Below are positions 44,274-63,852 of a DNA stretch of 64,000 nucleotides, one piece after another. This DNA is from Candidatus Latescibacterota bacterium (lineage in GTDB: Bacteria; Latescibacterota; UBA2968; GCA-2709665): contig OZ252100.1 in the NCBI GenBank assembly GCA_965248435.1, positions 3,808,001 through 3,872,000 of the forward strand, given 5' to 3'. The notes under the pieces are model-generated. The model had not been told where the DNA came from. It was given only the letters and a program-made list of their open reading frames with translations, and did not search any database. Both the position numbers and the translations under genes were made by a program. Every line of letters begins with the position of its first letter. The stretch's first letter is position 1.

Positions 44274-44348
44274 GTTCAACACCGTGTATCCGGAATCCCG
44301 CTCCCGTCCACGCTTCTCCGACTCCGGATACACGCTTAATCGTTAACT
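44274..44348 (+). repeat. attC-like site 0
   Basis: GTTCAAC..gtgtatccgga / tccggatacac..GTTAACT. Confidence 0.7.
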
Positions 44349-44383
44349 GCAATCGTGGCCTGGGTGTCAAAGCAAGGAGAACC

Positions 44384-45448
44384 ATGTTGTCTGTAGCTGT
44401 TGTGGCCCTGGTATCTGTCCTGCTTTTGTCAGATTCTTCTTTCGGAAGAGATGTGAACCTTGACCTGACTCAAGCAGTAGCCGAAAATGACAGCGCCGCC
44501 TTGAGAGTCGCTCTAGATTTAGTTGCAGATGTGAATGCTAAGGACCAGAAAGGCATGACAGCTCTAATGGATGCGGCGATGAACCCCAATCCACACATTA
44601 CACAAATGTTGTTGGATTCAGGAGCAGCTGCAAATGCAATAGATTCGGAAGGCAGGACAGCTTTAATGTATGCGGCAGTGAAAGGAAATATCACAACCGT
44701 TCAAACCCTGTTGGACGCGGGTGCCCATATGAACACTCAAAACCGCGGGGGTAGGACAGTTTTGATGCTAGCTTCAGCAGCGGGTTACGAATCAATCGTA
44801 CAGGTGTTACTGGATGCGGGGGCTAGGGTGAATGCAGAAGACGGGAATGGTTACACGGCATTGAGGTGGGCGGAAAAGAATGCTCACATTGGCATTGCGC
44901 GGACGTTGCGGCTTGAGCGGGTACGGTTTAGGCCAGACATTGATATTCCCCTAATACGGGCATCATTTGCCGGAGACATATCCACTGTCCAAGCCTTGGT
45001 TGAGAAGGGCGTTGATGTGAACTTGAGGGACGAAGGTGGCAATACAGCTCTGAAATGCTCAGCTCGAAAGGGACATACAGACATTGTAGAAGTACTGTTG
45101 GATAGAGGTTCAGACGTGGATGCACAAAGTAAGAATGGCCATACAGCCCTGATGGTGGCAGCTCGTAAGGGCCATACGACTATTTTAGAAGTGCTCCTAG
45201 AAAAGGGCGCAGATGTGAACGCCACGGATATATATAGGGTTACGGCTTTGATGGGCGCGGCAGTCAAGTGTCATCGGACTGTCGTGCAAGCGCTTCTGGA
45301 TAATAATGCGGATGTCAATTTGAAAGACAGTAAGGGTAGAACAGCCTTGGAGTTAGCCAAGATGGCCTTAGGATCTGCCGTCGATTCAAACAAGGAACGC
45401 TATTCTGACCTTATTCTGTTGCTCCAGAATGCAGGAGCCGAGGAATAG
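44384..45448 (+). CDS. Ankyrin-repeat protein with signal peptide (cassette 1)
   Basis: Repeated G.TALM.AA..G...V..LLD.GA.VN; hydrophobic N-terminus. Confidence 0.92.
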   Translation: MLSVAVVALVSVLLLSDSSFGRDVNLDLTQAVAENDSAALRVALDLVADVNAKDQKGMTALMDAAMNPNPHITQMLLDSGAAANAIDSEGRTALMYAAVKGNITTVQTLLDAGAHMNTQNRGGRTVLMLASAAGYESIVQVLLDAGARVNAEDGNGYTALRWAEKNAHIGIARTLRLERVRFRPDIDIPLIRASFAGDISTVQALVEKGVDVNLRDEGGNTALKCSARKGHTDIVEVLLDRGSDVDAQSKNGHTALMVAARKGHTTILEVLLEKGADVNATDIYRVTALMGAAVKCHRTVVQALLDNNADVNLKDSKGRTALELAKMALGSAVDSNKERYSDLILLLQNAGAEE

Positions 45449-45480
45449 CTGACTGTCAAAAGTTCTACGGCCACGACAGC

Positions 45481-45561
45481 AGTTAACAAGGCACTTGCGG
45501 CTCGGGCCGTGCGGCCCTCGGCAAACCCCTACGGGGTTCGCAAGTGCCTAGACCGTTACAC
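45481..45561 (+). repeat. attC-like site 1
   Basis: AGTTAAC..ggcacttgcg / cgcaagtgcc..GTTACAC. Confidence 0.85.
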
Positions 45562-45587
45562 GCCAGGCACACAAGGATGGCTCAAAG

Positions 45588-46160
45588 GTGCTGATGCCCG
45601 AAGCCCTATCCATAATCGTGCAGCGGGTCTTTCACTCCAAGCCTCGATCAACACTGTTGACGGAGAGCACTGCACTCCAAGCTAGCGAGTTGGCCGACAC
45701 TTGCCTGGGCCTGCGCGCGCAGATGCTCCACTGTCTGGAGGGGCTTCCCGCGCTGGCCTTCGAACCGGCGCCTGACCGCCTGCCTGGGGAGACTGGCTGG
45801 ACGGCGGGTGAGATCGTCAGCCACAACACCGACCGCCTGTTGTGGGCGCTGACCGAGGCAACCGCGACCGCCGGACTGAGCGAAAGCATTGTTCCGAGGC
45901 CGCCCGAAGTGGTCGCGAGCAACGCAGCGCACGAGCCTATACTTCTAGACCGCTGCCTTGCCCTGGAGGTCGTGCAGGCGGCAAACGGCCATCTCAAGAG
46001 TGTGCTTCCTCTCCTGTTGTCAACCGACCGGGGGGAGACGACAACGAGGACTCACCACGGACCCATGAGCGTCAAATCGTGGCTACTCCTGATTTGTATC
46101 CACGACAGCGACCATTTGGGGCAGTTGCGCGCACGCCAGGAGCCAGGCACGTTGGCTTGA
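45588..46160 (+). CDS. DinB-like protein (cassette 2)
   Basis: WTAGEIVSH and HDSDHLGQL His motifs. Confidence 0.7.
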   Translation: MLMPEALSIIVQRVFHSKPRSTLLTESTALQASELADTCLGLRAQMLHCLEGLPALAFEPAPDRLPGETGWTAGEIVSHNTDRLLWALTEATATAGLSESIVPRPPEVVASNAAHEPILLDRCLALEVVQAANGHLKSVLPLLLSTDRGETTTRTHHGPMSVKSWLLLICIHDSDHLGQLRARQEPGTLA

Positions 46161-46203
46161 TGAGGAGGCGATGCTTTTTACATGTGGTGTGGATGTGCCC
46201 GGC

Positions 46204-46345
46204 GTGTAACACGACGGGCTGCGGCTCGTGGCATTCGCCCCTCGCCCAACCTGCCTCATCGCGGTCACGGCACTTGCTCAAGAAAATCGTGGGTGGCAAG
46301 CGCCGCGCCCGCTTGGCAGGTTCGCAGCCCGCGAGAACGTTACAC
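46204..46345 (+). repeat. attC-like site 2
   Basis: GTGTAAC..gggctgcg / cgcagccc..gagaacGTTACAC. Confidence 0.85.
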
Positions 46346-46408
46346 GCCAGCAGGTTCTTCCTGAAACAACCGATAGGATGATGTTCCTGATGGAGTTCCC
46401 TTGGAGCA

Positions 46409-47299
46409 ATGATGAAAGACTCTTTTTCCGTATCTGACATCCCGCCCGAAGAAATCCAAGAGGTAATCGAGGTCACCAACGACTATCTAGTTGCGTTGGC
46501 GGCTGCGTCGAGGGATCAAGATGGGCATGTAAACGTGAACTGGACTGCTAGCGGCATGCTGGCTACCATAGGCGGTGAGCCCACTATCATCACTGCCCGA
46601 CATGTCGCTGAGGCTCTGGAAAGAGAAGAACCGGAGAGTGTTAAGATCTGGACTGACTTCAGAAAGGAAAGTGCAACGGCAGTAATGTCTTTAGACATTA
46701 CGCATGTACGCTTTGTGAAGTCTGCAAAACCGGCGTCAGGGAAGGCCATTGATGGCCCTGACCTGGCATTGATATTACTTCCGGACCACTTGGTTGGATC
46801 AATATCGGCCACCAAGGGCTTCTACAATCTGGACAAACGGCGCGACGCCGCGCTCCAGCAGGAGGGACCGCCCACGACAGGCTTCTGGCTTGCTCGTGGC
46901 TTTCCGTACGAACTCGTGACCGGGATGGATGGCGCCGAGGGTTTCTGCTTCTACTGCCTCAACCACGTGTGCTACCTCAGCGGATCCCACGAAGAGGCTG
47001 GCCATGATTACTACGACCTGGAGTTCGATTTCACATTGATGGACACCCTATCAGCCTCCGGCGAGCATCCAGAGTTGAAGACCAACCAGGGAATGAGCGG
47101 TGGTCCTATATGGCACGTTAAGGTTCACGGCGACTCGGAGGGCGTACCACGAATAAAGGACCCGCAGGGAGATATCCTTCTCTCCGGAGTGATCTTCTAC
47201 GAGTACGACCTAGAGAAGGAAAGCAAGAAGTTTCGCTGTCACGGAATCCGGTCGGTCTATAAAGCGCTCTACGATCTCCTCAAACAGCAGACTGACTAA
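46409..47299 (+). CDS. Trypsin-like serine protease (cassette 3)
   Basis: ITARHV, PDLAL, GMSGGP catalytic triad motifs. Confidence 0.7.
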   Translation: MMKDSFSVSDIPPEEIQEVIEVTNDYLVALAAASRDQDGHVNVNWTASGMLATIGGEPTIITARHVAEALEREEPESVKIWTDFRKESATAVMSLDITHVRFVKSAKPASGKAIDGPDLALILLPDHLVGSISATKGFYNLDKRRDAALQQEGPPTTGFWLARGFPYELVTGMDGAEGFCFYCLNHVCYLSGSHEEAGHDYYDLEFDFTLMDTLSASGEHPELKTNQGMSGGPIWHVKVHGDSEGVPRIKDPQGDILLSGVIFYEYDLEKESKKFRCHGIRSVYKALYDLLKQQTD

Positions 47300-47316
47300 C
47301 CCTTTGGTGCGCCGGC

Positions 47317-47455
47317 GTGTAACACGAGCACCCACGGCTCCGGCGCATACGCGCCTCCGCTGAAACCTGCCTCCCGCCTTACCAGTCTGCTCTGATAGAT
47401 GCCTGACGGCCTTCGTGAAGAGTCGGCAGGTTCGTGGGTGCCGAGAACGTTAAGT
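47317..47455 (+). repeat. attC-like site 3
   Basis: GTGTAAC..gcacccacg / cgtgggtgc..GTTAAGT. Confidence 0.85.
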
Positions 47456-47484
47456 GAAACCCGACGAAGGGGTTTACGCAAATC

Positions 47485-48132
47485 ATGCAATCTAAGCGGG
47501 CTGTGGTCCTCCAGCGCATCGCTGCAGAAATCTGGGGGAACCTTACTGACAATGTGATAAAAGTCGCGATCGATGGTGTAGATGGCGCCGGCAAGACGAC
47601 ATTTGCAGACGAGCTCGCTGAAATCATCGAAAACCGACCTATAATCCGTGCATCAGTAGATTTCTTTCACAATCCCCGAGCAATCAGATACCGACAGGGA
47701 AAAGATTCGCCGTTAGGTTTTTTCGAAGACTCGTACAACTACGAGGAACTTCTCGGCTTACTTCTCAATCCTCTAAGTCCTGGAGGGTCTGGGCGCTTTC
47801 GCACTAAGGCATTCGACCACAGGACCGACGCCCACGTTGAGTCACCCGAACTGTACGCGGAGCCAGAGTCGATTCTCTTGTTCGACGGGATTTTCTTGCA
47901 TAGACCTGAACTTTGGGACATATGGGATTATTCAATCTACTTGGACGTGAATTTCGAGAACTCAATTCCGAGATGTGCTCTCCGTGGAGAGGGAAATCCG
48001 GATCCCTATGCCGAGCAGAACCGCCGCTACATAGAGGGGCAGAAAATTTACATCCAAAACTGCCAACCCAGTGAACGGGCAACAATAATCGTCGACAACA
48101 ATGATTTGGATGCTCCCTTTATCGTTTCTTAA
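47485..48132 (+). CDS. Uridine kinase-like P-loop protein (cassette 4)
   Basis: IDGVDGAGKTT, DFFH, FDGIFL. Confidence 0.85.
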   Translation: MQSKRAVVLQRIAAEIWGNLTDNVIKVAIDGVDGAGKTTFADELAEIIENRPIIRASVDFFHNPRAIRYRQGKDSPLGFFEDSYNYEELLGLLLNPLSPGGSGRFRTKAFDHRTDAHVESPELYAEPESILLFDGIFLHRPELWDIWDYSIYLDVNFENSIPRCALRGEGNPDPYAEQNRRYIEGQKIYIQNCQPSERATIIVDNNDLDAPFIVS

Positions 48133-48166
48133 TGCTGGTACGGCGGGCGTATCCGCGTCGGACTTC

Positions 48167-48294
48167 ACTTAACACGTCCACTTGCGCTGCGGCGCATTCG
48201 CGCCTTGGCCTGACGGCAACCCGCCTTCCTCCTTCGCTGCTTCGCAGCTTCGGAGGGCAAGTCGGCGGGTTCGCAAGTGGCGGGAACGTTATAT
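48167..48294 (+). repeat. attC-like site 4
   Basis: ACTTAAC..ccacttgcg / cgcaagtgg..GTTATAT. Confidence 0.85.
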
Positions 48295-48321
48295 GCAATG
48301 CAGCCAGGAGAGGGTTTTCGA

Positions 48322-49044
48322 ATGGAGAGTCGATTGGATTCGGACCATCCAGATCCCATCCTTGCAGAGCAGGTAGAGTACTACCGTGCTCGGGCTCCAG
48401 AGTACGATGACTGGTACCTCCGCAGGGGGCGATACGATCACGGGCAAGAGCTGAATGACCGATTCAGGGCAGAAATCAACACCGTTGAAACCGAGGTGAG
48501 GGCTCTTGCGAATGTGGACAGGATTTTGGAACTGGCTGCTGGTACCGGCTGGTGGACGAGGCTCTTTCGGGAGACAGGTGCCAGAGTGACGGCCGTGGAT
48601 TCTTCGCCGGAGGTCCTAGCAAAGAACCGGGGTAGGAATGGAGACGAGAAGATCGAGTACGTAGAGGCCGATGTACTCAGTTGGACGCCGCGCGGAAGGT
48701 ATGATCTGGTCTTCTTCGGCTGCTGGCTCTCTCATGTCCCCCCCGACCAGTTTGAGACCTTCTGGAATAGAGTTGGAGAATCTGTGAAACCGGGAGGCAA
48801 AGTGGCTTTCGTGGACACACTGCGAGAAGGAATCAAGACCGTGGCGGCGCGAGACCATCACCGGAGAGAGAATGAAGGCGACATCACCGAACGCTACCTA
48901 AACGACGGAACGCCGTTCAAGATTTACAAAGTCTTCTACCAACCAGAGGAGTTGACAGAACGGCTACAACGACTGGGATGGGAAGTCAAGGTCAAGACCA
49001 GCGGAGAGTACTTCCTTTTCGGATCGGGTGAAAGGGAAAACTAA
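48322..49044 (+). CDS. Class I SAM-dependent methyltransferase (cassette 5)
   Basis: YYRARAPEYD, LELAAGTG, WLSHVP. Confidence 0.88.
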   Translation: MESRLDSDHPDPILAEQVEYYRARAPEYDDWYLRRGRYDHGQELNDRFRAEINTVETEVRALANVDRILELAAGTGWWTRLFRETGARVTAVDSSPEVLAKNRGRNGDEKIEYVEADVLSWTPRGRYDLVFFGCWLSHVPPDQFETFWNRVGESVKPGGKVAFVDTLREGIKTVAARDHHRRENEGDITERYLNDGTPFKIYKVFYQPEELTERLQRLGWEVKVKTSGEYFLFGSGEREN

Positions 49045-49088
49045 CCCCCACAGAAATGTGTTTTCTCTCGGCAACCTGGCTGCACTGC

Positions 49089-49175
49089 ATATAACACGAC
49101 GGGCTGCGGCTCCGGCCATTTGGCCTCCGCACCAACCTGCCTGCGGCAGGTTCGCAGCCCGCGAGAACGTTATAG
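49089..49175 (+). repeat. attC-like site 5
   Basis: ATATAAC..gggctgcg / cgcagccc..GTTATAG. Confidence 0.85.
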
Positions 49176-49252
49176 GAAATGCCAGCAGCTCAACTTACTG
49201 GGTGGTTGTTAAGAATGTTCGGAACTATTGAATCGAAAGAGGTGCGCTGAAC

Positions 49253-49906
49253 ATGAAAGTGCCCTACGCAGACTCCGGTGTATGGGACCGAAGGTTCGAG
49301 CAAGAAGGTGATTTAGACTGGGGAGGGCTTTGGACCGATCCGTTCATAGAACTTTTTCGGGAGAACGGTTGCCATTCGATTCTGGATCTGGGGTGTGGGA
49401 CTGGAAACGATGTACTCCGCCTGGCAGAGGAAGGGTTTCAAGTCACTGGACTGGATTTCTCTGAGCACGCTCTTAATCTAGCGGAGCCTAAGAGGATTCA
49501 GGATGCGACATTCATTCGGGCGGACATGGTCGATGGGCTGCCGTTTGTTGATAAGCGCTTCGATGCTGCAATGGCGAACGTAGCGCTTCACATGTTCGAC
49601 CGTGGCACCACAGACACTGTCATTCAAGAAGTAAGAAGGATCCTCCGTCCGGAGGGAGTGTTCATCTTTCACGTCAACTCTATTGATGATCGAAGGCTGC
49701 GTGAGAAGCGTAGGAAACCCGAGGAGGAACTGGATAAGAATCTTATCAGAGAAGAAGATGGACAGACCGTTCACTTTTTCACCCAGACCGAACTCAAGTT
49801 ACTCTTTGCTGGATGGTCCCAGTTACAACTTGACCACTTGGAGATTCCGCATAGGGAAACGGGTGAACCATTCAAGAGGATGTGGAGAGGAGTGGCCAAG
49901 AATTGA
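49253..49906 (+). CDS. Class I SAM-dependent methyltransferase (cassette 6)
   Basis: ILDLGCGTG, GLDFS, RILRPEG. Confidence 0.88.
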   Translation: MKVPYADSGVWDRRFEQEGDLDWGGLWTDPFIELFRENGCHSILDLGCGTGNDVLRLAEEGFQVTGLDFSEHALNLAEPKRIQDATFIRADMVDGLPFVDKRFDAAMANVALHMFDRGTTDTVIQEVRRILRPEGVFIFHVNSIDDRRLREKRRKPEEELDKNLIREEDGQTVHFFTQTELKLLFAGWSQLQLDHLEIPHRETGEPFKRMWRGVAKN

Positions 49907-49943
49907 GGATCTAACCAATTAGAAACATGACTGCTGGCACTTC

Positions 49944-50037
49944 CTATAACACGACCACTTGCGCTGCGTCGCTTTCGCTCCTTGGCCTTTACGGCAACCC
50001 GCCTTTGGCGGGTTCGCAAATGGCGAGAACGTTATGC
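49944..50037 (+). repeat. attC-like site 6
   Basis: CTATAAC..ccacttgcg / cgcaaatgg..GTTATGC. Confidence 0.85.
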
Positions 50038-50143
50038 GCCAATGCTGTTTCTGTGGTGGAAACTGCAGACTAGGGAGCAGACCCCCAGGGCAATTGTTTG
50101 TACACCCAGATTGCCTATGATGGTGTAACGAGCAAGAAAGTTC

Positions 50144-50680
50144 ATGACAAAGATCAAGAACCTTCGAGATGTGGGACTCGGCATCAACGAAATCCTAGTG
50201 GAAAGCATGCTTAGACAGTGCGCTCTCTATCGCAGCGGCGCCCTACCTGATTCTCTGCAAAAGGGTGATCTGCCCTGGGTTGAGACCGTTATTAGCCTGA
50301 GACGGGAGGCCGATCCCGAACTCGAAAACATCAAACAGCTGCAAGTTGCACCCAATGGCTCGATGAACAACTACGTTTTCACGGCTCAGGTCTTCGAAGA
50401 GTGGATTCAGAGACTGTATAGGACACTAGCGGAGTTTACTGTCTGGCCTGTTCTCCTGCATTGTACAGGAGGCAAAGATAGAACTGGAGTTGGCGTCGCC
50501 CTTGTTTTGAGAAACCTTGGCATCTCTGAGGACGCCATTGTGGAGGAGTATATGCGGGGTGAAGGCACTCGCTACCCAGAAAGCATGGAGAACCTCCTAA
50601 AAGAACTCCCTCGGCTGTCACATCTAAGAATGGATGAACAACAAAAGGAAACGATCGGAAGTGAATTGCTGGCGGACTAG
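50144..50680 (+). CDS. Tyrosine-protein phosphatase (Y_phosphatase3-like; cassette 7)
   Basis: NLRDVG, LYRSG, HCTGGKDRTG P-loop. Confidence 0.85.
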   Translation: MTKIKNLRDVGLGINEILVESMLRQCALYRSGALPDSLQKGDLPWVETVISLRREADPELENIKQLQVAPNGSMNNYVFTAQVFEEWIQRLYRTLAEFTVWPVLLHCTGGKDRTGVGVALVLRNLGISEDAIVEEYMRGEGTRYPESMENLLKELPRLSHLRMDEQQKETIGSELLAD

Positions 50681-50766: not shown

Positions 50767-50911
50767 GCATAACAACGGCACCCCCGGCTTCGGCGCTTAC
50801 GCGCCTGCGCGCAACCTGCCTGGCGCTGTCACGGCGCTTGCAATAAATCAAGACCCTGAGGGGCAAGCGCCGCGCCAGCTTGGCAGGTTCGTGGGTGCTT
50901 GACCGTTAAAC
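50767..50911 (+). repeat. attC-like site 7
   Basis: GCATAAC..gcacccccg / cgtgggtgc..GTTAAAC. Confidence 0.85.
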
Positions 50912-50933
50912 GACATAAGAAAAATCAATCACT

Positions 50934-51944: not shown

Positions 51945-52046
51945 GTTTAACAGGCCACACACGCTGCGGTCGCTACGCTCCCTTGGCCTACGGCACAGCG
52001 GCTCCGTTTCACTGCGCCGCCGTCGTGTATGGCCGGACCGTTAGCC
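51945..52046 (+). repeat. attC-like site 8 (divergent type)
   Basis: GTTTAAC a ggccacacacg / cgtgtatggcc ggaccGTTAGCC. Confidence 0.8.
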
Positions 52047-52551: not shown

Positions 52552-52693
52552 GGCTAACACGGCACCCCCGGCTCAGCGCCTGTCGGCGCTTCGGCCCAAC
52601 CTTCCTTCGCGGTCACGGCGTTTGCTTCAAAGACAAAAGCTGGGCAACCGCCGCGCCCACTCGGCAGGTTCGTGGGTGCCGAGAACGTTAGAT
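52552..52693 (+). repeat. attC-like site 9, R' box interrupted by IS110
   Basis: GGCTAAC..cggcacc / ggtgccg..gagaacGTTAG|IS. Confidence 0.85.
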
Positions 52694-52706
52694 ACTCTCT
52701 TGGTGG

Positions 52707-53699
52707 TCAAGCCATTTTGTAGAACTTTTCTCCGTCGAAGTCCTGGTTGTGTTGGAGAATACCCCAGATGCAGTGAAGCAGCTTTCGCATCACCGCGATG
52801 ACCCCCTGCATCGGCTTCTTGCCTCGACTGATGAGTTTTTCGTAGAACGCCTTCACATTGGGCTGCTGTTGAATGGCCACCAGCGCTGGCATATATAAGG
52901 CGGTTCGTAAATACTTATTCCCCGCTTTGGAGATCACTCGGCGCTTGTGAATCGTGTCTCCCGATTCGTGGGGTCGTGGATCCAGGCCTGCGTAGGCCAC
53001 CCATTGGGCAGGCTTCATATCGGCAGGCAACATCGCAATCTCTGCCAGAATGCCCATCGCGCTGGTTGCTGCGATCCCGTGAACGGAAGTCAATCGTGCG
53101 AACTTCTCGCGCAGAGTGGCTTCCCCCTCAATGAGCTCCAGAGCCCGCGCTTTCAGCTGCTGCACACGCGCTTTGAGATGTTCAACATGCTCTTCGATGT
53201 CCAAGGAGACGGCAGAGGTGACCGATGGCCGCTGCGTGGAAGCATGAAGCCGGTTTCCTTCCCGGTTGATCTCGACTTTGATCTGCGCGATCCGGCGTGT
53301 AATCGCCTGCAGGTCAAGCACTTCATCACGGGGTGCCTGCCACGTCTGGAAGGGCATCCGCTGCACATACTCCAATGCCACTTCCGCATCGATCGGGTCG
53401 GTTTTCCCCCGTTTCATCAAAGCCTGGGAGAAATTCCTCAGCGCTCTGGGGTTGATTACCATCACCTGAGTCTTCGGATGCCGATGCAACGCCAACGCCA
53501 CCTCAAAACTATAGATGCCTGTGGCCTCGACTCCCACTCGAGCCGGCTTTCCCCGCTTTGTCGCCCACTTGATCAATCGACGGTGCCCTTCGCCTGTGTT
53601 GGGAAATCTTGCCAGTGGATACGCTTTCCCTGAGCGACGGATCGCGACCACCAGCTCCCGGGCTGAGACGTCTACCCCCAACAGATTCTCTTGCTTCAT
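52707..53699 (-). CDS. IS110-family recombinase (DEDD RuvC-like + Tnp20 domain)
   Basis: GVDVS, VEATG, KTDPID, YAGLDP..HESG, SKAGN; start MKQENLL after an AAGGAGG RBS. Confidence 0.93.
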   Translation of the reverse strand: MKQENLLGVDVSARELVVAIRRSGKAYPLARFPNTGEGHRRLIKWATKRGKPARVGVEATGIYSFEVALALHRHPKTQVMVINPRALRNFSQALMKRGKTDPIDAEVALEYVQRMPFQTWQAPRDEVLDLQAITRRIAQIKVEINREGNRLHASTQRPSVTSAVSLDIEEHVEHLKARVQQLKARALELIEGEATLREKFARLTSVHGIAATSAMGILAEIAMLPADMKPAQWVAYAGLDPRPHESGDTIHKRRVISKAGNKYLRTALYMPALVAIQQQPNVKAFYEKLISRGKKPMQGVIAVMRKLLHCIWGILQHNQDFDGEKFYKMA

Positions 53700-53719
53700 G
53701 ATCTCTCCCTCCTTATTTG

Positions 53720-53872
53720 TACCTCTGGTCCCCCGACCTTGCACCTGGCCTACCAGCCTTGTGATACAGACTCTCGGGTCTCGGATACTCCTCGGCATGG
53801 GCCAAGAAGGCGGGGGGCCTATCTAACGTCCAAGGTCAATGCCTTCATGCGCAATCCGGCCTCCCCAGAGGT
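53720..53872 (-). ncRNA. Predicted IS110 bridge RNA
   Basis: Closing stem ACCUCUGG/CCAGAGGU; target loop AUUGCGCAU + GACGUUAG; donor loop GGAGUAUC + ACAAG. Confidence 0.75.
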
Positions 53873-53956
53873 CTTCTTCGAACCAAGATAATCTACAAAT
53901 AGATCATATTTTCAAGATACAAGATGCAATCGTGGCCCTGTTACGAAGAGGGTTGA

Positions 53957-54807: not shown

Positions 54808-54896
54808 ATCTAACACGACGGGCTGCGGCTCCGGCGCATTCGCGCCTCCGACCCAACCTGCCTGCGGCAGGTTCGCAGCCCGCGAGAACGTTATGC
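54808..54896 (+). repeat. attC-like site 10
   Basis: ATCTAAC..gggctgcg / cgcagccc..GTTATGC. Confidence 0.85.
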
Positions 54897-55538: not shown

Positions 55539-55651
55539 GCATAACACGGCACCCTCGGCTCAGGCCATCCGGCCTTCGCCCAACCCGCCTTCGCGGCTTA
55601 CGCCGCTTCGGTGGACAGGCGGCAGGTTCGTGGGTGCCGAGAACGTTATGC
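55539..55651 (+). repeat. attC-like site 11
   Basis: GCATAAC..cggcaccc / gggtgccg..GTTATGC. Confidence 0.85.
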
Positions 55652-55714: not shown

Positions 55715-56605
55715 ATGCATTCGATTGACCTGAAGGGAAAAGTTGGTTTGGTCACCGGCGTTGGCAACAAGTGGAGCCTGGGTTGGGCAATTGCCCAAAT
55801 TCTCCACTCCGCAGGAATGCTCCTTGTTTTTGGGTATTCCAGACAGAGAAGTCGAAAAGCAATCGAGAAGCTCCTGACCGAATCGGGATGGGATAATGTG
55901 GTACTTCCAGATGTGATCTACGATGCCGAGGACGATACTCAGATTGAAAGACTCTTCAACTTTGTGGAGGATGAGGTTGGTGCTTTACATGCGTTCCTTC
56001 ACTCGATAGCCTTTGCACCTCCAGAGGCACTGCAAGGCGAGTTCGGTGATACATCCCGTGAGGCTTTTCGGACCGCTCTGAATGTCAGTACGTTTTCTTT
56101 CTTGAAGATGAGTCGATGTGCCTCAGAATTGATGGTTGATGGCGGTTCCATTCTCACTCTGAGTTTCTTGGCTTCACAGAGAGTGTTTCCTCACTACAAC
56201 GTAATGGGAACTGCGAAAGCCGCGCTCGAACACTCTGTCAGACAGCTAGCTTTCGAGTTAGGACCCAGAAACATCAGGGTGAACACCATTTCGGCTGGAC
56301 CAATAAGCACGGCGTCTGCCCGAGGCGTAAAGGGATTTGGAGGATTTCATCACTCCTACGCTGAGAATGCACCCCTGCGAAGAAATGTAAGTCAGGAGGA
56401 AGTCGGTAAGGCTGCTCTCTTCCTTCTTAGTGATCTGTCGAGTGGAGTCACCGGGGAAGTGCTTCATGTGGATGGAGGATACAATGTCCTGGGAGCGCCC
56501 CTTGGAGAATTTCCAAAGGCAGATCAACGGCAAAAAAGGGGAGAAGCATGCTCCGGCTCTCCCCCAAACTCCTTCGATGAGAACCAAAGCCGACTCACCG
56601 CATAA
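55715..56605 (+). CDS. fabI: Enoyl-ACP reductase (cassette 12)
   Basis: GVGNKWSLGW, HSIAFAP, YNVMGTAKAALE, ISAGPI, VLHVDGG; stop codon lies in the attC R'' box. Confidence 0.88.
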   Translation: MHSIDLKGKVGLVTGVGNKWSLGWAIAQILHSAGMLLVFGYSRQRSRKAIEKLLTESGWDNVVLPDVIYDAEDDTQIERLFNFVEDEVGALHAFLHSIAFAPPEALQGEFGDTSREAFRTALNVSTFSFLKMSRCASELMVDGGSILTLSFLASQRVFPHYNVMGTAKAALEHSVRQLAFELGPRNIRVNTISAGPISTASARGVKGFGGFHHSYAENAPLRRNVSQEEVGKAALFLLSDLSSGVTGEVLHVDGGYNVLGAPLGEFPKADQRQKRGEACSGSPPNSFDENQSRLTA

Positions 56606-56685
56606 CAAGCCGTCTGCGGCTCGGGGCAGTCGCCCCTCGCTCAACTTGCCTTCGGCAAACTCGCAGAACGGCCAGAACGTTAACT
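56600..56685 (+). repeat. attC-like site 12
   Basis: GCATAAC..gccgtctgcg / cgcagaacggc..GTTAACT. Confidence 0.8.
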
Positions 56686-57634: not shown

Positions 57635-57779
57635 AGTTAACACGGCACTCCCGGCTCAGCGCCTGGTTGCGCTTCGCCCAACCTTCCTTCGCGGTCACGG
57701 CGCTTGCTTTAAAGATAAAATGCGGTTTGCAACCGCCGCGCCCGCTTGGCAGGTTCGCAGCCCGCGAGAACGGTTAAAT
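57635..57779 (+). repeat. attC-like site 13 (mismatched arms)
   Basis: AGTTAAC..cggcactcccg / cgcagccc..GTTAAAT. Confidence 0.8.
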
Positions 57780-57886: not shown

Positions 57887-58786
57887 ATGATGAAAGAACT
57901 TGCTGCAAGAGCCTTGGAAGATATCGAGCACTCAGTACCTCATGGGATATGGGGTGCTCACAACGGCTGTGCGATCCTCGCGGGCATATTTCTGATCGAA
58001 GAGAACTTGATCGAGGAAGGTGCGAAGGAAGCGGTGAAGCAATTGCTCAATTCGAGTAGAGTTAAGAGGGACCAGCAAGGAAACGAAAGGCGCCTCATCA
58101 GCTTGGGTGATTTCAGAGAAAGATTGATATCTTGCCTAGCGCTGGACCCGGAGCAAGTAAAAGAAATCGGCCACGATGTAATCTTCTCTTCGTACGTACT
58201 CAAGGCTTTGGATTTCCTTTCGATCTCACCCTGGGAGTCGTTGCTGGAGAGCATGGTAGAGTTGATCGGCGCGATTAAGGAATCCACGCCAGGTTGGATC
58301 ACCGTGAATGGAGAAAATCAACCGAGAGAACTGGACAAAGTTGACTCAAGTCTGCCGACAAACTACTGGCATGCCTTCGCGGCCTTAGATAGGCCCATCC
58401 AAATGGAAATAGGAGATATGCAGTTAGGACATGTTCTTACTCACGGGCATGCGATCGAGATGTTCAAATTGTACGGAAACAAGAAATCAGCGGTTGCATT
58501 TGATATAGCCTATCGCAAGCGATTGCACGGACTGCTATTGGCAAACAGTGAACAGAAAGAAAGAACAGCGCTTCCTCGTAGAAGGTTAGATCCACGCCTC
58601 GCGAGCTATTGGAGGCACGTGAAAACCAACGGCGACATGGAAGGCCATGTTTACAAGTACGCCTTCAGCTTCCTGGATCTGAATAGGCATGATCTGCGGA
58701 CCGAGGCATTCGAGGCATTCGGAAGGGTTGTTTGGCCCAACAAGCCGCTGGAGACAACGGCGACAAACGATGCGTCTAAGCCCTGA
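57887..58786 (+). CDS. Hypothetical His-rich helical protein (cassette 14)
   Basis: GAHNG, IGHDVIF, GHVLTHGH, GHVYKY; fills the cassette. Confidence 0.6.
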   Translation: MMKELAARALEDIEHSVPHGIWGAHNGCAILAGIFLIEENLIEEGAKEAVKQLLNSSRVKRDQQGNERRLISLGDFRERLISCLALDPEQVKEIGHDVIFSSYVLKALDFLSISPWESLLESMVELIGAIKESTPGWITVNGENQPRELDKVDSSLPTNYWHAFAALDRPIQMEIGDMQLGHVLTHGHAIEMFKLYGNKKSAVAFDIAYRKRLHGLLLANSEQKERTALPRRRLDPRLASYWRHVKTNGDMEGHVYKYAFSFLDLNRHDLRTEAFEAFGRVVWPNKPLETTATNDASKP

Positions 58787-58794
58787 TGTTAGTA
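58735..58794 (+). repeat. Vestigial classical 59-be-type attC nested inside cassette 14
   Basis: GCCCAAC-aagcc-gctggagac..gtctaagc-cctgat-GTTAGTA, 60 bp. Confidence 0.6.
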
Positions 58795-58841
58795 AGAACT
58801 TGGCTCAACTATCAGTTTGACCAGAGATAGTATCCCACGTC

Positions 58842-58933
58842 ATTTAACACGCCCACTTGCGCTGCGGCGCATTCGCGCCTTGGCTTTTGGCAACCCGCCT
58901 GCAGCGGGTTCGCAAGTGGCGAGAAGGTAGGAC
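58842..58933 (+). repeat. attC-like site 14 with degenerate R' (GTAGGAC)
   Basis: ATTTAAC..ccacttgcg / cgcaagtgg..gagaagGTAGGAC. Confidence 0.75.
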
Positions 58934-58959
58934 GCCAAGTCTGTACAGGCGGGTAGCCT

Positions 58960-60267
58960 ATGGATGAAGAGATCTTGAATGAGTCAATCGTATTCCTTGG
59001 TCTATGTGAGAAAGTCCAAACGGTTCCCGATGGCCATCCGGACTTTCTGAAACAGAACATACTAGGACTCAAGACTACTGTCTTCTCTCCCTTCTTTCCT
59101 ATGGGAATGAAAGGGTTTAGTCTTGCCTTCTGTATGAAGTGGCGGGATGTGCCATTTTCTGCCAAGATTAGAGGCTTGCATCCCGACGGGAAGGAAGCGT
59201 TTCGTATCGAATTCAACGCTGAATTTGAGCCACATGAGTCCGGACAGCGAAAGAAACCAGGTGAGGCCAGCCAATCAAGGTTTAGTGTAATTGCATCAGA
59301 CGATCCGCCATCTTGGGCATTTGTGACTTTCCCTGTGCCTGAAAAATCAGTGGTGGCAACGCCGGGTTTTATGAAAATCTGTGCCGCAGTTGCCGAGGAG
59401 GAGTCAGTCATTGGCCAGGTAAGATTTGTGCATGCGAAGCCTGCCCCACTCACTCCAGATAGAATCGACGCGATCAAGAGCAACCCACAAGCAGCGAAAA
59501 CAGTCTGGTACACAATCGGGTGCACGGAGTGTTCGGACGCTATCAAAGCCTACGCTGGGATCGGTCGCAACATGGATTCGGAAGAAGATGGCTGGATTTG
59601 GCAACATGACCTACCTAAGACGTTCAAATGCAAATGTGCGAAAACGAGGTTGGATCTATCCTATATGCGCGATGGTCTTCACGGCCTCTTGGGTTCCATC
59701 TATAGCATAGGCGAGGACGTAGAGTTCACCCGTCTCTACGAAAGAAGCGCTCTTGAGTCAATTTCAGGCAAGTATTGGAAGATACTGCGAGATTCGGAAA
59801 GGGAAGAAGATCTGCAGAAGTTCATCGAGGGAGCTCCAGCACTTTTGCAGTGTTTTAGTCCTGCACGGATCTTTCACAAGAGCCCCATCCTGAGTAAATA
59901 CAGTGTTGATTTCGCCATTCTCGACACTCAGGGGCACCTAATCCTTATTGAGATAGAAAGACCAGGAATCCGCTTGCTTCGTAAGGATGGCGGAATGGCG
60001 GCCGAACTCGGACATGCTTTCACTCAAGTAAGTCAATGGTTACTGGAATTTGACTTGCATCGACAGGCTTGCCTGGAATGTATTGGGGTCGACCCAAAAG
60101 AGGTTGTCCAAGTTAGAGGTGTAGTTATCGCAGGACGAGAAGCCGAGTATCCGGCAGAACATTTGGCCAGGCTAAAATGGGAAGACCGAGGTAAGATAAG
60201 CTTCCTTACATACGACGATCTTGGCCGGAGCTATATCAGTCTTATTCGAAGGTTCCATGACCTGTAG
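58960..60267 (+). CDS. Shedu (SduA/DUF4263)-like nuclease with uncharacterised N-terminal domain (cassette 15)
   Basis: EEDLQKFI, VDFAI, LIEIERP, AFTQVSQW, VVIAGR, LTYDDL. Confidence 0.72.
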   Translation: MDEEILNESIVFLGLCEKVQTVPDGHPDFLKQNILGLKTTVFSPFFPMGMKGFSLAFCMKWRDVPFSAKIRGLHPDGKEAFRIEFNAEFEPHESGQRKKPGEASQSRFSVIASDDPPSWAFVTFPVPEKSVVATPGFMKICAAVAEEESVIGQVRFVHAKPAPLTPDRIDAIKSNPQAAKTVWYTIGCTECSDAIKAYAGIGRNMDSEEDGWIWQHDLPKTFKCKCAKTRLDLSYMRDGLHGLLGSIYSIGEDVEFTRLYERSALESISGKYWKILRDSEREEDLQKFIEGAPALLQCFSPARIFHKSPILSKYSVDFAILDTQGHLILIEIERPGIRLLRKDGGMAAELGHAFTQVSQWLLEFDLHRQACLECIGVDPKEVVQVRGVVIAGREAEYPAEHLARLKWEDRGKISFLTYDDLGRSYISLIRRFHDL

Positions 60268-60283
60268 ATCGTGCAGACTCGGC

Positions 60284-60427
60284 ATCTAACACGCCGGGCT
60301 GCGGCTCCGGCGCATTCGCGCCTCCGGCCCAACCTGCCTTTCGCGTTCACGGCGCTTGCTTGGCGACGAACAAAAGGGGCAAGCGCCGCGCCCACGGGCA
60401 GGTTCGTGGGTGCCGAGAACGTTAAAT
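60284..60427 (+). repeat. attC-like site 15 (mismatched arms)
   Basis: ATCTAAC..gggctgcg / cgtgggtgccg..GTTAAAT. Confidence 0.8.
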
Positions 60428-60507
60428 GCAATTGCGGCTCACAGACAAGCCGGCGACGCGTCCTGCGCCGCAAACAAAACTAGAGCTACGGAAGTAGGAG
60501 TACACTC

Positions 60508-61422
60508 ATGGCTGAACAAACCGAAACTGAATCACCCGAATGCAGTAATGTCGCCCCTCTCGTGGGATTCTGGGGCTGTGATGCGGAAACGGACGAGATA
60601 CCTGTTGGGTTTGATGTCGCACTCGTCAGGAATCCGAGGGTGGATGTTGATGAGGAATGGTCAAAGAAGATTGGGACGTCGGCTACCGATGAGCTGCGAA
60701 GAGCTCAGTGGGCACTTGAACACAGGTATCGTGGTGAGCCGGGAATCCATTTGGGATCAAAGGAGGATCTTTCGGATCAGTTGTTGCAGACTGCGTTGCT
60801 TGCTCTTTGGATCACTAAGCCCACCGGAGCCAGGATCACGCACCTGCTGAGATACCGTACCCCCTGGCACTCTGCGAATGCAGCATCTGTCGCGTTCTAC
60901 CGAGGGGATTCCTTTAGACCTAATCGTCGATATGAAAGGACTACTTTCGCCCCCGACGATCTGGATGACCTCGGGACAGTGTTCAAGGGCGTGAAATCAA
61001 TATTCGACATGAAGAAGGGACTCAGGCGAGCACTCTACCATCTGAGCGGGGCCTTACACTTGTGGTTCTGGGATGCTCGATTCGCGATGTTCACAGTCGT
61101 TCTCGAAAGCCTGTTCACCACAGACGCACAAGAGATCACGCACAAGATCAGCGAACGCATCGCCTTCTTCCTTAAGGACACTCCAGCAGAGAGGCGATGT
61201 GTGTTTGATGACGTAAAGGAAATCTACCGTACAAGATCGAGAATTGTCCACGGACTCGATCTCAAGGCTACTGAAGAACAAACCGTCAGCCTCTTGGCGG
61301 AACTAGAGGCGCTTGTTCACCACGTTTTGAAGAGGATTTTGAAAGATTCAAAGCTGGTAGAGGAGTTCTCTGGCAATGCCAAGCGACGTGAACAGTTCCT
61401 AACTGACCTTGTGTTCTCCTAA
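60508..61422 (+). CDS. HEPN-domain protein (ApeA-like; cassette 16)
   Basis: LESLF..EITHKISERIA..YRTRSRIVHG (RxxxxH). Confidence 0.75.
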   Translation: MAEQTETESPECSNVAPLVGFWGCDAETDEIPVGFDVALVRNPRVDVDEEWSKKIGTSATDELRRAQWALEHRYRGEPGIHLGSKEDLSDQLLQTALLALWITKPTGARITHLLRYRTPWHSANAASVAFYRGDSFRPNRRYERTTFAPDDLDDLGTVFKGVKSIFDMKKGLRRALYHLSGALHLWFWDARFAMFTVVLESLFTTDAQEITHKISERIAFFLKDTPAERRCVFDDVKEIYRTRSRIVHGLDLKATEEQTVSLLAELEALVHHVLKRILKDSKLVEEFSGNAKRREQFLTDLVFS

Positions 61423-61479
61423 GTCTTTATGGAGCTTGGCCAACTTGCCTTCGTAGCAAGCTGGCCGGGCCGCAACAGC

Positions 61480-61622
61480 ATTTAACACGAGCACCCCCGG
61501 CTTCGGCGCATTCGCCCCTCGCCCAACCTGCCATTTCACTGTCACGGCGCTTGCTTAAGAAAACCGTGGGTGGCAAGCGCCGCGCCAGCTTGGAAGGTTC
61601 GCAGCCCGCGAGAACGTTAGCC
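61480..61622 (+). repeat. attC-like site 16 (mismatched arms)
   Basis: ATTTAAC..gcacccccg / cgcagccc..GTTAGCC. Confidence 0.8.
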
Positions 61623-61716
61623 GAAATTCCTTACCCCACCCCGTCTGTGAAGGCACGCAGATTCGTAACCACAGTCGATCGGAGACCGTTTCGACCGGTG
61701 GGACGGAGATCTTATC

Positions 61717-62166
61717 TTGAGATACGGAATGAGTGCCGCGGCCGTGATCGTCCAACACAATCGAGTGCTGCTGGTCCATCATTCTAAGCGGGGCGAGTTT
61801 GACTTCTGGTTGCCCCCCGGCGGCGGCCTTGAAGGACAGGAGTCTATCTTTGACTGCGCCTCGCGAGAGGCACTGGAAGAAACGAGTCTTGAGGTTGAGT
61901 TAGACAGAATTATCTACATTCAAGAATTTGTCGAATCTGACTATCACTTCTGCAAGTTTTTCATCCTGTGCCGAAGTTACAATGGCACCATTTCTCTCAA
62001 GAACAAAACAGCCGAGGAGGATTTCCTGGTAGACGCTCGTTTCTTCTCTGAGAGTGACCTAAGCAGCATGGATGTCAGGCCAGATATACTGAAGGAACAA
62101 TTCTGGTCAGATCTTCGGGCGGGCTTTCCAAAAACGAGATATCTCGGGTTGCACACGATAGGTTAA
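61717..62166 (+). CDS. NUDIX hydrolase (cassette 17)
   Basis: PGGGLEGQESIFDCASREALEET. Confidence 0.9.
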   Translation: MRYGMSAAAVIVQHNRVLLVHHSKRGEFDFWLPPGGGLEGQESIFDCASREALEETSLEVELDRIIYIQEFVESDYHFCKFFILCRSYNGTISLKNKTAEEDFLVDARFFSESDLSSMDVRPDILKEQFWSDLRAGFPKTRYLGLHTIG

Positions 62167-62243
62167 AGACGCAAATGCTTTGACGCGTGCTTGAGGGCTG
62201 CCCTCAATGGAAATACCGAGGGGGGCAGTTCTTCAAGAACTTC

Positions 62244-62340
62244 GGCTAACACGTCTACTTGCGCTACGGCGCATTCGCGCCTTGGCCTCCGGCAACCCGC
62301 CTGACGGCGGGTTCGCAAGTGGCGAGAACGAACGTTATAC
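62244..62340 (+). repeat. attC-like site 17
   Basis: GGCTAAC..acttgcg / cgcaagt..gagaacgaacGTTATAC. Confidence 0.82.
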
Positions 62341-62369
62341 CACATTAGTCAGGACAGAAAGGCAACAGA

Positions 62370-62828
62370 ATGAAGGATTGCATGACCTGCGAACTGACGG
62401 AGAGACGCAGGCTGGGCCAAGCTCCACTTTGGGACTGCATCTATCGCACTCAGTTTTGGGATGTGGCGCATGCTTACAATACCGCATTGCCTGGCTGGCT
62501 TGTGTTGATTGTTCAGAGACATATAGAAGCGATCGATGAACTGACTGAGCAGGAAGCCGTTGAGTTGGGGGGCTTGATTCGCCGGGTTTCTTTGGCGCTA
62601 AAAAAGATCACTGGATGTGCGAAAACATACGTGATCCAATTTGCCGAGCATAAAAATCATCCGCATGTGCACTTCCATATTGTGCCACGTATGTCTGATC
62701 AGCCCGAGGACCGACGAAGCACAAAGATCTTTGCCTATCTGGGCGTCTCTCAAGAGGAAAGTGTGAGTGAACATCAGATGAATGACATTGCCACCAAGAT
62801 TCAGAGCATTCTGTTGTCAAATGATTGA
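62370..62828 (+). CDS. HIT family hydrolase (cassette 18)
   Basis: CMTC, HPHVHFHIVPR. Confidence 0.9.
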   Translation: MKDCMTCELTERRRLGQAPLWDCIYRTQFWDVAHAYNTALPGWLVLIVQRHIEAIDELTEQEAVELGGLIRRVSLALKKITGCAKTYVIQFAEHKNHPHVHFHIVPRMSDQPEDRRSTKIFAYLGVSQEESVSEHQMNDIATKIQSILLSND

Positions 62829-62845
62829 AAGTCTAAACTCACGTC

Positions 62846-62988
62846 GTATAACACGGCACCCCCGGCTCAGCGCCTGACGGCGCTTCGACCCAACCCGCGC
62901 TCGCGGTCACGGCGCTCGCCTTAAAGACAAAAGCCGGGGCAACCTCCGCGCCCGCTCCGCAGGTTCGGGCGTGCCGAGAACGTTACAC
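62846..62988 (+). repeat. attC-like site 18
   Basis: GTATAAC..cggcac / gtgccg..GTTACAC. Confidence 0.85.
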
Positions 62989-63102
62989 GCAACCGGCCCC
63001 TAGCAAGGCAGGGCGGCGCGTCCTGCGCCGCCAAACACAAAGGTTGCAAAAACCGACAAAATTGGCGTCTATTAGAGAGATAATAGGTAAGGATCTTGAA
63101 TA

Positions 63103-63342
63103 ATGCCGACGGTATTGAGGGAAGGTCCCTATCGATTCTTTTTCGTATCACTCGACCGAGAAGAACCCGCGCATATTCACATACGGCGGGAGAACATGGT
63201 AGCAAAGTTTTGGCTTGATCCTATGGCGCTGGAAAGGGCTGGTGGATTCAGAGCTTCCGAACTGAACCGGATCGCCCAGCTTGTTCAAGAGCATCGAGAA
63301 CACTTCTTGGAGCAATGGCATGGCTTCTTCGCAGAAGAGTAA
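63103..63342 (+). CDS. DUF4160 protein (putative toxin; cassette 19)
   Basis: MPTVLR.GPYRFFF.S....EPAHIH..AKFWL. Confidence 0.85.
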   Translation: MPTVLREGPYRFFFVSLDREEPAHIHIRRENMVAKFWLDPMALERAGGFRASELNRIAQLVQEHREHFLEQWHGFFAEE

Positions 63343-63637
63343 GTCTGAAGCAAGAGCGCAAGAGGTGACACTCACTGACGAAGTGTTGAGCATTAGCCTC
63401 GTGGACGGTCGTTCCGTCAGTGTGCCGCTTTCGTGGTATCCTCGTCTGTGGTACGGCAGTGAGGAAGAACGCAAGAACTTCGAACTATTTGGAGATGGAT
63501 CGTACATTCACTGGCCTGATCTCGACGAAGATCTCACAGTTGAAGGTATCCTCGAAGGAAAGCGATCGGCCGAAGGTCCCAGCTCGCTGAAGAAATGGCT
63601 CGAGACAAGAGAAGGAAAATCCAAACCCACAGCTTGA
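63320..63637 (+). CDS. DUF2442 protein (putative antitoxin; cassette 19)
   Basis: L.DGR...VPLSWYPRL, IHWPDLDEDL; overlaps the DUF4160 gene. Confidence 0.85.
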   Translation: MASSQKSKSEARAQEVTLTDEVLSISLVDGRSVSVPLSWYPRLWYGSEEERKNFELFGDGSYIHWPDLDEDLTVEGILEGKRSAEGPSSLKKWLETREGKSKPTA

Positions 63638-63712
63638 GGATACATCCAACTGAGTTGTGCGTACGCGGCCTTGCCATCCCCGGCAAGGCCGCAACTACAA
63701 GGTCCCGGCAGC

Positions 63713-63852
63713 GTGTAACACGACGGGCTGCGGCTCGGGGCATTCGCCCCTCGCGCAACCTGCCTTATCGCGGTCACGGTGCTTGCCGATGAAAGGCGGG
63801 TTGCAACCGCCGCGCCCGCTCGGCAGGTTCGTGGGTGCCGAGACCGTTACCT
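63713..63852 (+). repeat. attC-like site 19 (mismatched arms)
   Basis: GTGTAAC..gggctgcg / cgtgggtgccg..GTTACCT. Confidence 0.82.

Follow-up and report, generated by a model that had tools for sequence, protein, structure and literature searches.

The IntI-specific domain of integron integrases and the extrahelical attC bases that it reads are treated as defining in integron biology. The locus described here raises the question of which enzyme would serve an array of gene cassettes whose sites lack those bases. It lies in a 64,000-nucleotide stretch of the genome of a Candidatus Latescibacterota bacterium (contig OZ252100.1, positions 3,808,001 to 3,872,000; the whole stretch is called the window), in which a ~20-kb array of single plus-strand genes, with imperfect palindromes in between, runs from 44.3 kb to the window end. 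Judging from comparison of sequences, we consider it probable (about 60%) that this is an integron-type cassette array with a variant site design, and that its sites are substrates of a separate IntI-like lineage and not of classical IntI.

Cassette sites of the array and their geometry

Nineteen attC-type sites of one family, 81-145 nt long and all on the plus strand, are found at 45481-63852 (Table 1). A covariance model, R1, was trained on 18 of them and used to search all 64 kb with the filters off. The search returned the 18 training sites and the untrained site at 51945-52046 (33.9 bits); there was no further match at E<=0.1 in the 64 kb, and none before 45481. The initial annotation had counted 20 sites. 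Nineteen of one family stand, that at 51945-52046 included, and the sequence at 44274-44348 is instead the right end of an IS91-type insertion sequence that is not matched by the model. Over the array the G+C content drops from ~0.59 to 0.49-0.55. By domain assignment, the products of the cassette genes include ankyrin-repeat, DinB-like, phosphatase, APH-like kinase, NUDIX, SDR, nucleotidyltransferase, Shedu-type nuclease, HIT and DUF2442 proteins as well as methyltransferases. For two proteins searched, the nearest named relatives belong to metagenome-assembled genomes labelled Pirellulales (47-48% identity) and 'bacterium' or Gemmatimonadetes (51-56% identity), and a sulfatase search pointed to no taxon.

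The R boxes of the sites are canonical (RYYYAAC ... GTTRRRY). R'' reads xxxTAAC in all 19 and R' reads GTTAxxx in 18, the R' of the site at 58842 being degenerate. At 18 of the 19 junctions, reverse-complementing the 7-mer that starts from G|TT gives the R'' of the following site, and the only junction that breaks this rule is the one after the site at 58842. The divergent site outside the training set (site 8b) obeys it on both sides, its R'' (GTTTAAC) being complementary to R' of site 8 and its R' (GTTAGCC) to R'' of site 9. The crossover point in the array is the canonical G|TT. Because the complementarity between R' and the next R'' holds at 18 of 19 junctions, the palindromes of the window are true cassette sites. 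This complementarity is the trace of integron-type exchange at G|TT, for which chance or a terminator-like repeat is an inadequate explanation.

No cassette of the array has a duplicate elsewhere in the genome. In public data the stretch is present only in assembled contigs of one sample (four runs, one study), with no RNA data set listed as containing it, and these contigs break at repeats. A search for cassette excision in those data gave 'joints' whose shorter side was 20-57 letters (20-32 in all but one), and repeats could explain all of them.

The sites share the pattern AAC, 1-2 nt, an 11-12-bp stem, GCT, hairpin 1, hairpin 2 (AACC..GGTT), the returning stem, (G/A)GAAC and GTT, with a nested insert of 50-70 nt inside hairpin 2 of the long sites. 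The common pattern and the conserved three-way junction that the initial annotation had described are therefore borne out, with the small change that the 5' flank of GTT, given there as AGAAC, reads (G/A)GAAC. RNAalifold folds the window sites into 21 pairs that form a three-way junction of the main stem and the two hairpins, and 13 of the 21 pairs have changes on both sides. Paired cells amount to 92.7%, compared to 81.1% in shuffles (0 of 500 as high) and 32-43% with a slid partner. The main stem occurs in at least three covarying sequence types. When folding energies are computed for DNA, the bottom strand is favoured in 17 of 18 sites of the window, with a mean difference of -4.1 kcal/mol, and in 64 of the 75 sites scored across the genome; PMC5027507 reports this pattern for attC sites.

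It is the geometry beside the R box that sets these sites apart. In canonical attC sites both arms have a 5-6-nt spacer, and a G (position 16) and a T (position 23/24) are extrahelical (PMC2727003 and PMC5027507). In the window sites the stem begins 1-2 nt after AAC on the R''-L'' arm and 5-6 unpaired nt precede GTT on the R' arm, so the symmetric 5-6-nt spacer is absent; there is no extrahelical base at position 16 (G16) nor at T23/24. Read on the bottom strand, the AAC of R' is directly followed by a bulge of 4-5 nt (GTTCT) that faces no more than 0-1 nt on the other arm. Next come 11-12 bp, in which a single base may be bulged out after the second pair, and then the three-way junction. The GTTCT bulge is on the arm opposite to the one that bears the extra bases in canonical sites. 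An exact stem of at least 7 bp was found in 38 of the 75 genome sites, here called foldable. The stem offsets after AAC and before GTT are (1,5) or (4,7) in 33 of these 38: 24 have offsets of (4,7), which correspond to CG, one bulged base (position 11) and 9 bp, and 9 have offsets of (1,5) and no bulge.

Three sets of sites served for comparison. Inspection by eye of six of seven class 1 attC controls showed R'' followed by 5 nt, 3 bp and an additional base at +9; the remaining control, dfrA5, passed a strict canonical test. The sites behind the canonical IntI of a relative (genome G004) have the canonical layout, with 5/5-6-nt spacers and the extra base at +9, and the consensus of the published Planctomycetes attC model (PMC8352920, supplement 4) is likewise canonical. 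The strict canonical test is insensitive, as it finds 2 of the 7 class 1 sites, and was used as a contrast only. It gave 8 variant-type hits and 1 canonical hit in the window array, compared to 1 and 5 in the IntI array of G004. Five arrays associated with short recombinases, described below (genomes G152, G091, G107, G049 and G051), gave 16 variant-type and 3 canonical hits, and the short-recombinase array L112 of G004 gave 4 and 0. Shuffled sequences gave 0-1 hits save in two scans that reached 2, and shuffles of the window array gave 0 variant-type and 0-1 canonical hits.

The short spacer and the missing extrahelical G reported in the initial annotation thus hold on the R''-L'' arm and at position 16, and the controls show the +9 base that is lacking here. 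The branched Y shape, which had been taken as a further non-canonical trait, does not count as one: in chromosomal attC sites, VCR among them, the terminal structure is variable and can be complex and branched, according to PMC2727003 and PMC5027507. The R-proximal geometry of the window sites is non-canonical; branching as such is not unusual.

In four of the 19 sites (57635, 60284, 61480 and 63713) the two arms come from different stem types and the main stem cannot form. A crossover in the middle of a site was considered as the source of such chimeric arms and rejected, as the 5' arm fits the 3' arm of its own site, and not that of the preceding site, in 14 of 18 typed sites. A strict perfect-stem test was passed by 8 of the 19 window sites.

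Candidate recombinase and array heads

A search of this genome (97.5% complete, 2 contigs) with TIGR02249 gave nothing over the 265-bit cut-off, the best match reaching 104 bits. The same genome has at least 75 sites of this type in at least 8 loci, with 150 of 1948 candidates scored. In a first sample the site type was found in 29 of 41 genomes, of which one (G004) has IntI and 28 have none. In a sample of the phylum it was found in 57 of 151 genomes, 53 of them with no IntI over the cut-off and 4 with IntI. The variant geometry is shared by genomes from several families. No R1 match was found in the 11-20 kb examined at each of five canonical IntI loci (two in G004, and one each in G107, G093 and G119), and where an IntI array was read, in G004, its sites were canonical.

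A different tyrosine recombinase is found with the variant sites. The stand-alone form contains PF13495 and PF00589 and has a full length of ~370 residues, including an extra N-terminal domain of ~100 residues. The catalytic residues (R, K, HxxR, H, Y) are invariant in an alignment of these short recombinases, which are 35-40% identical to the IntI of G004 and lack ~40 residues of it (a gap in the alignment). Among solved structures the closest relative is VchIntIA (2a3v, E 5e-43), aligned in two segments that leave out its residues 171-237, and 2a3v is also the top fold match of a predicted model of the recombinase (mean predicted local distance difference test score, pLDDT, 81.5). Against TIGR02249 the short recombinases score 195-241 bits compared to the cut-off of 265. 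Like XerA, four of the five scanned have NF040815 (XerA / 'integron integrase') as their top family, just under its cut-off (210-219 bits compared to 220). The copy in G001 scores higher with TIGR02249 (240.9 bits) than with NF040815 (215.2 bits). In a quick IQ-TREE phylogeny of 35 sequences, from which the fragment L040 was omitted, eight IntI form one clade (99% support) and the short recombinases form another group outside it (88%). Recombinases linked to IS91-type elements are a subclade (100%) inside the latter group. The stand-alone genes carry the extra N-terminal domain and all but one lie outside the IS91-linked clade, the exception being the copy of G004 at 2519k. Unlike XerA, the short recombinases are split from the host Xer genes (100% support, as are the IntI), and their genes are found beside cassette arrays and not beside a dif site.

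In the VchIntIA-VCR structure, contacts to the extrahelical bases are made by the region that the short recombinases lack. Sites without such bases and an enzyme without the IntI insert would make a coherent match. PMC4889954 cites Messier and Roy (2001) for an additional, IntI-specific domain close to patch III.

The extra N-terminal domain (P0001 / L138:3101-3430) is predicted with pLDDT values of 85-91 to be a small beta-alpha fold. It has a weak HARP match (17 bits compared to a cut-off of 25), and some fold matches to full-length lambda integrase span ~370 alignment columns. The domain may be a DNA-arm or junction-binding domain.

Array position was tested for 17 stand-alone recombinase copies, with two others at contig ends left out. 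Ten of the 17 are at an array head. Eight have the orientation of the cassettes and precede the array by 0.9-4.8 kb (G003, G018, G049, G051, G038, two in G004, and G107), and two are divergent and lie 0.7-1.1 kb from the array head (G152 and G091). Remnants of the recombinase gene are found at four more heads, namely those of this window, of the array at 4954k in this genome (G000), of G020 and of G002. A metagenome scan with the full-length recombinase returned 19 loci, of which the only useful one (L123) is a gene remnant within an array of this site type.

At the head of the window array, the remnant consists of the last 17 codons of the gene. It can be aligned to the 3' end of a recombinase fragment in the same genome (C1:4954386-4954607) as well as to the intact G003 and G018 genes. 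Since only these codons remain, the array is probably an orphan, and the only intact relatives of that recombinase in the genome are six copies of a 283-residue paralogue borne by an insertion sequence. The remnant directly follows an unrelated DUF1016/staphylococcal-nuclease (SNase) gene (40648-41682, plus strand), which apparently took the place of most of the recombinase gene. Paralogues of the DUF1016/SNase gene are present in the genome at C1:1449.7-1450.8k and 5166.6-5167.6k, the loci being 84% and 76% identical.

The remnant is followed by an attI-like region that is homologous to the stretch after the recombinase stop codon in G003, G018, G038 and G049. In G003, G018 and G049 the stop codon is followed, at a distance of 127 nt, by a G|TT that matches R'' of the first cassette attC. 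G051 has the same junction sequence as these three, and the match to R'' holds at the attI-like points of all four. The comparison thus supports a different recombinase, as the initial annotation had suggested: the candidate stands at the head in 10 of 17 cases and the site type is absent from all five IntI loci. On this sequence evidence it keeps the status of a candidate.

In the window the attI-like region ends at the insertion point of an IS91-type element, which starts with TTGAAC and ends with ..AATCG. ISfinder lists IS91 members with an upstream tyrosine-recombinase gene, and like these the element is a two-gene unit of ~2.5 kb that encodes a recombinase and a Y2-HUH transposase. The transposase matches NF033538 with 450 bits (cut-off 125), and its matches to PF04986 and PF14319 correspond to Y2-HUH with a zinc-binding N-terminus. 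Relatives of the unit are found in metagenome-assembled genomes of Pirellulales, Terriglobia and Eremiobacteraceae. Unlike those relatives, all six copies here sit at the G|TT of attI-like sites and have a hairpin end with a spacer asymmetry (3 compared to 8 nt) like the short and long spacers of the array sites. The end hairpin is simple, with no junction, and is kept in all six copies; its GTTCAAC complements the first bases of the element itself, TTGAAC.

The six copies, in the window and near 1447k, 2070k, 4651k, 4842k and 5171k of the genome, are 97.9-99.8% identical. Each starts at G|TTGAAC and ends at ..AATCG|TTAxxx with a different continuation every time, and the conserved attI-like region, always ending in ..AG|TT, is upstream of all six. 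Even at the most similar locus the flanking sequence shares only 84% identity, therefore the insertions are independent. On these sequences the element is bounded like a cassette and is inserted in the attI-like site like a cassette, and its near-identical copies at G|TT show that such sites have recombined recently in a genome that lacks IntI. IS91 target tetranucleotides are GTTC or CTTG, and none of the six junctions (..AG|TTGAAC and ..AATCG|TTAxxx) is adjacent to either. Top-strand recombination at R'' was considered for the element and is ruled out, as the entire end hairpin, as far as G|TT, is common to all six; in ordinary cassettes it may occur.

Copies of the element are also found in G004, twice right behind a canonical intI, at its attI, and behind a stand-alone short recombinase. 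In the same genome (C1:2493564-2519939; loci L028, L110 and L111) a canonical intI with a canonical array faces a short recombinase with a variant array within ~25 kb.

Alternative explanations

If the sites are served by the separate IntI-like lineage, the cognate enzyme would be an IntI-like recombinase without the IntI-specific insert. Its gene would stand at the array head, as in the relatives, and be followed by the attI-like region, with G|TT 127 nt after the stop codon as in three of them. In the window the gene would have decayed to 17 codons, the array would have been left orphaned, and an IS91-type element with a 283-residue paralogue would have entered the attI-like site as a cassette.

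Much of the system is shared with the known pairs of attC-aadA7 with IntI1 and of VCR with VchIntIA. These include promoterless cassettes on the same strand, RYYYAAC/GTTRRRY cores, crossover at G|TT, a bottom strand that folds better, a G after the AAC of R', a terminal structure that is variable and sometimes branched, and a recombinase whose closest match in sequence and fold is IntI. The differences are the R''-L'' spacer of 1-2 nt instead of 5-6 nt, the lack of extrahelical G16 or T23/24, and the extra unpaired bases on the R' arm, beside the cleavage site. The recombinase also differs from IntI, as it lacks the ~40-residue insert and many copies have the extra N-terminal domain. Unlike in IntI systems, its gene mostly runs in the same direction as the cassettes, with the attI-like point ~125 nt past the stop codon. 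A full-text literature search, with many subscription journals outside its coverage, gave no account of this site geometry or of an array-head recombinase without the IntI domain.

Several observations weigh against the assignment to a separate lineage. Model R1 was built from window sites and its matches favour this site family. Homologues of the short recombinase (E<=1e-45) were found in 14 of 53 genomes of the order, and most site-bearing genomes have neither an intact short recombinase nor IntI. No convincing array was seen near 6 of the 17 testable copies (G043, of which only 4.4 kb was seen; G004 at 7274k; G004 at 4075k, with weak hits only; G101; G091 C1; and G008), and the copy of G001 is inside an array to which its relation is ambiguous. 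Several of the head copies are broken, with a frameshift in G003, a stop codon in G152 and partial genes in G038 and G051. The recombinase family is very large (7537 matches at E<=1e-20 among 8000 candidates scored) and also has members in Clostridia and Dehalococcoidia, while array-head position was examined only within this bacterial group. Relatives of the recombinase borne by the IS91-type element were found in Fibrobacteria, Aquimarina, Pirellulales, Terriglobia and Eremiobacteraceae loci with no arrays nearby. Finally, IntI1 and VchIntIA recombine sites without extrahelical bases; deletion of these bases caused a 6.2-fold loss for VCR and a negligible one for two short sites (PMC2727003 and PMC5027507). 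Since IntI tolerates their loss, a canonical IntI acting in trans could therefore serve sites such as these.

This last point leads to the alternative that fares best, which we hold to be unlikely on balance. The sites would be ordinary attC sites of a classical IntI that either was lost later or works in trans, the short recombinases would be part of selfish elements with attI or attC as their homing targets, and the geometry would be a lineage variant that IntI tolerates at little cost. The array would then be a cluster of attC sites lacking an integron integrase (CALIN; Cury et al. 2016, PMC4889954), and such clusters without a nearby integrase are common according to that study, which classed recombinases without the IntI domain near attC sites as 'not IntI'. 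Like a CALIN, the window array has no integron integrase beside it or in the genome and has insertion sequences inside. Unlike the CALIN described there, its sites have a non-canonical geometry and its head is marked by the remnant of another recombinase and an attI-like region. The two IS91-type copies at the attI of canonical IntI in G004 are what a homing element would produce, and the head copy of G004 at 2519k falls within the IS91-linked clade; the other stand-alone genes, with their extra N-terminal domain, fall outside it, and the IS91-linked relatives in other phyla are not beside arrays. The attI-like crossover in G003, G018 and G049 is just downstream of the recombinase gene, continuous with it, and matches the first cassette, whereas a homing element would have its target upstream. 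The zero of five IntI loci with this site type, and the canonical sites of the IntI arrays that were read, also argue against a classical IntI.

It is improbable that the arrays are fossils, in which once-canonical sites have drifted and are recombined by no present enzyme. Signs of decay are plain: chimeric or mismatched arms are frequent (four of the 19 window sites; 37 of the 75 genome sites fall short of the 7 exact pairs that a strict test requires, a figure that also tells against the separate-lineage account), the head recombinase gene is down to 17 codons and no window cassette is duplicated elsewhere. Failing and mismatched sites are the outcome expected of decaying arrays, and together with the chimeric arms they suggest frequent homologous exchange between sites and cassette loss. 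Drift, however, would hardly give the same non-canonical geometry in three covarying stem types and again across several families, and this recurrence therefore points to selection on the fold. The six IS91-type copies at G|TT, nearly identical as they are, also represent recent recombination in a genome without IntI.

That the hairpins are substrates of an IS91-type rolling-circle (HUH) transposase and not of a tyrosine recombinase can hardly be maintained: the bottom-strand bulge GTTCT does include the IS91 target tetranucleotide GTTC and an IS91-type element is at the head of the window array, but arrays are present in many genomes without a homologue of the IS-borne recombinase (found at E<=1e-30 in 5 of 21 genomes of the family, compared to 19 of 21 with the site type), the element junctions are at G|TT and not beside GTTC or CTTG, and the chain of matching R' and R'' is the signature of integron-type exchange.

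The separate-lineage account could be extended, and we offer the extension tentatively, at somewhat less than even odds. There would be a second integron-type lineage, found in at least three families of one class, whose integrase never had, or has lost, the IntI domain that reads extrahelical bases and whose attC bulge has moved to the other arm, by the cleavage site. This lineage would explain many integrase-less arrays and would be parasitised by IS91-type elements that carry a paralogue of its integrase and enter its attI-like site. If this is true, the cassette logic has been kept with another site geometry and an integrase without the domain, and strand choice and site recognition are solved differently. 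Part of the integrase-less arrays (CALIN) would have an origin, additional attC and integrase models would be called for in integron finders, and a second structure-specific recombination system would be available for engineering.

Features of the window

The coordinates of the features are included in Table 1.

Table 1. Sites, mobile elements and array-head features of the window, with positions counted from the first nucleotide of the window.
Feature	Position	Strand	Remarks
Recombinase gene remnant	41686..41739	+	last 17 codons (..PLDDLMEIRFYGSEY*); aligned to G000, G003 and G018 genes; translation read by hand
attI-like region	41740..41862	+	~120 nt; ends ..GCAGAAG|TT at 41862|41863; IS91-type insertion point
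IS91-family element	41863..44342	+	2,480 bp; 283-aa tyrosine recombinase 42020-42871, IS91 transposase 42884-44068; Pfam/NCBIfam
Element end hairpin	44274..44348	+	75 nt; R''-like GTTCAAC, 3 nt, 11-bp stem, 8 unpaired nt, G|TTAACT
attC site 2	45481..45561	+	81 nt, after ankyrin-repeat cassette
attC site 3	46204..46345	+	142 nt, long form, stem type A
attC site 4	47317..47455	+	139 nt, stem type B
attC site 5	48167..48294	+	128 nt, stem type C
attC site 6	49089..49175	+	87 nt, stem type A
attC site 7	49944..50037	+	94 nt, stem type C
attC site 8	50767..50911	+	145 nt, stem type B
attC site 8b	51945..52046	+	102 nt, divergent, outside model training set, 33.9 bits
attC site 9	52552..52693	+	142 nt, stem type B; IS110-family element directly after R' GTTAGAT
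IS110-family insertion sequence	52694..53922	-	transposase 52707-53798; Pfam DEDD_Tnp_IS110, Transposase_20
attC site 10	54808..54896	+	89 nt, stem type A
attC site 11	55539..55651	+	113 nt, stem type B
attC site 12	56600..56685	+	86 nt, own stem sequence
attC site 13	57635..57779	+	145 nt, chimeric: 5' arm type B, 3' arm type A
attC site 14	58842..58933	+	92 nt, stem type C, degenerate R' (GGTAGGAC)
attC site 15	60284..60427	+	144 nt, chimeric: 5' arm type A, 3' arm type B
attC site 16	61480..61622	+	143 nt, chimeric: 5' arm type B, 3' arm type A
attC site 17	62244..62340	+	97 nt, stem type C, GAAC duplicated before R'
attC site 18	62846..62988	+	143 nt, stem type B
attC site 19	63713..63852	+	140 nt, chimeric: 5' arm type A, 3' arm type B

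The IS110-family element inside the array is present in three copies of 98% identity in the genome, the two others being at C1:1444289-1445528 and C1:2066291-2067550. Each copy directly follows an attC R' of the sequence GTTAGAT, and the element appears to home to this heptamer. Members of the IS1111-attC group of the IS110 family are comparable in this respect, the likeness being one of position only.

The cassette at 58960-60267 (plus strand) encodes a Shedu SduA C-terminal nuclease domain (PF14082, E 1.4e-17) and is likely an anti-phage cassette. Upstream of the array, at 32568-40448 (plus strand), there are three tandem genes of ~840-850 codons each, the last of which encodes pectate-lyase and GH28-like domains. 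The DNA identity between the three is 82-92%, and more copies are found 35-60 kb downstream in the genome.

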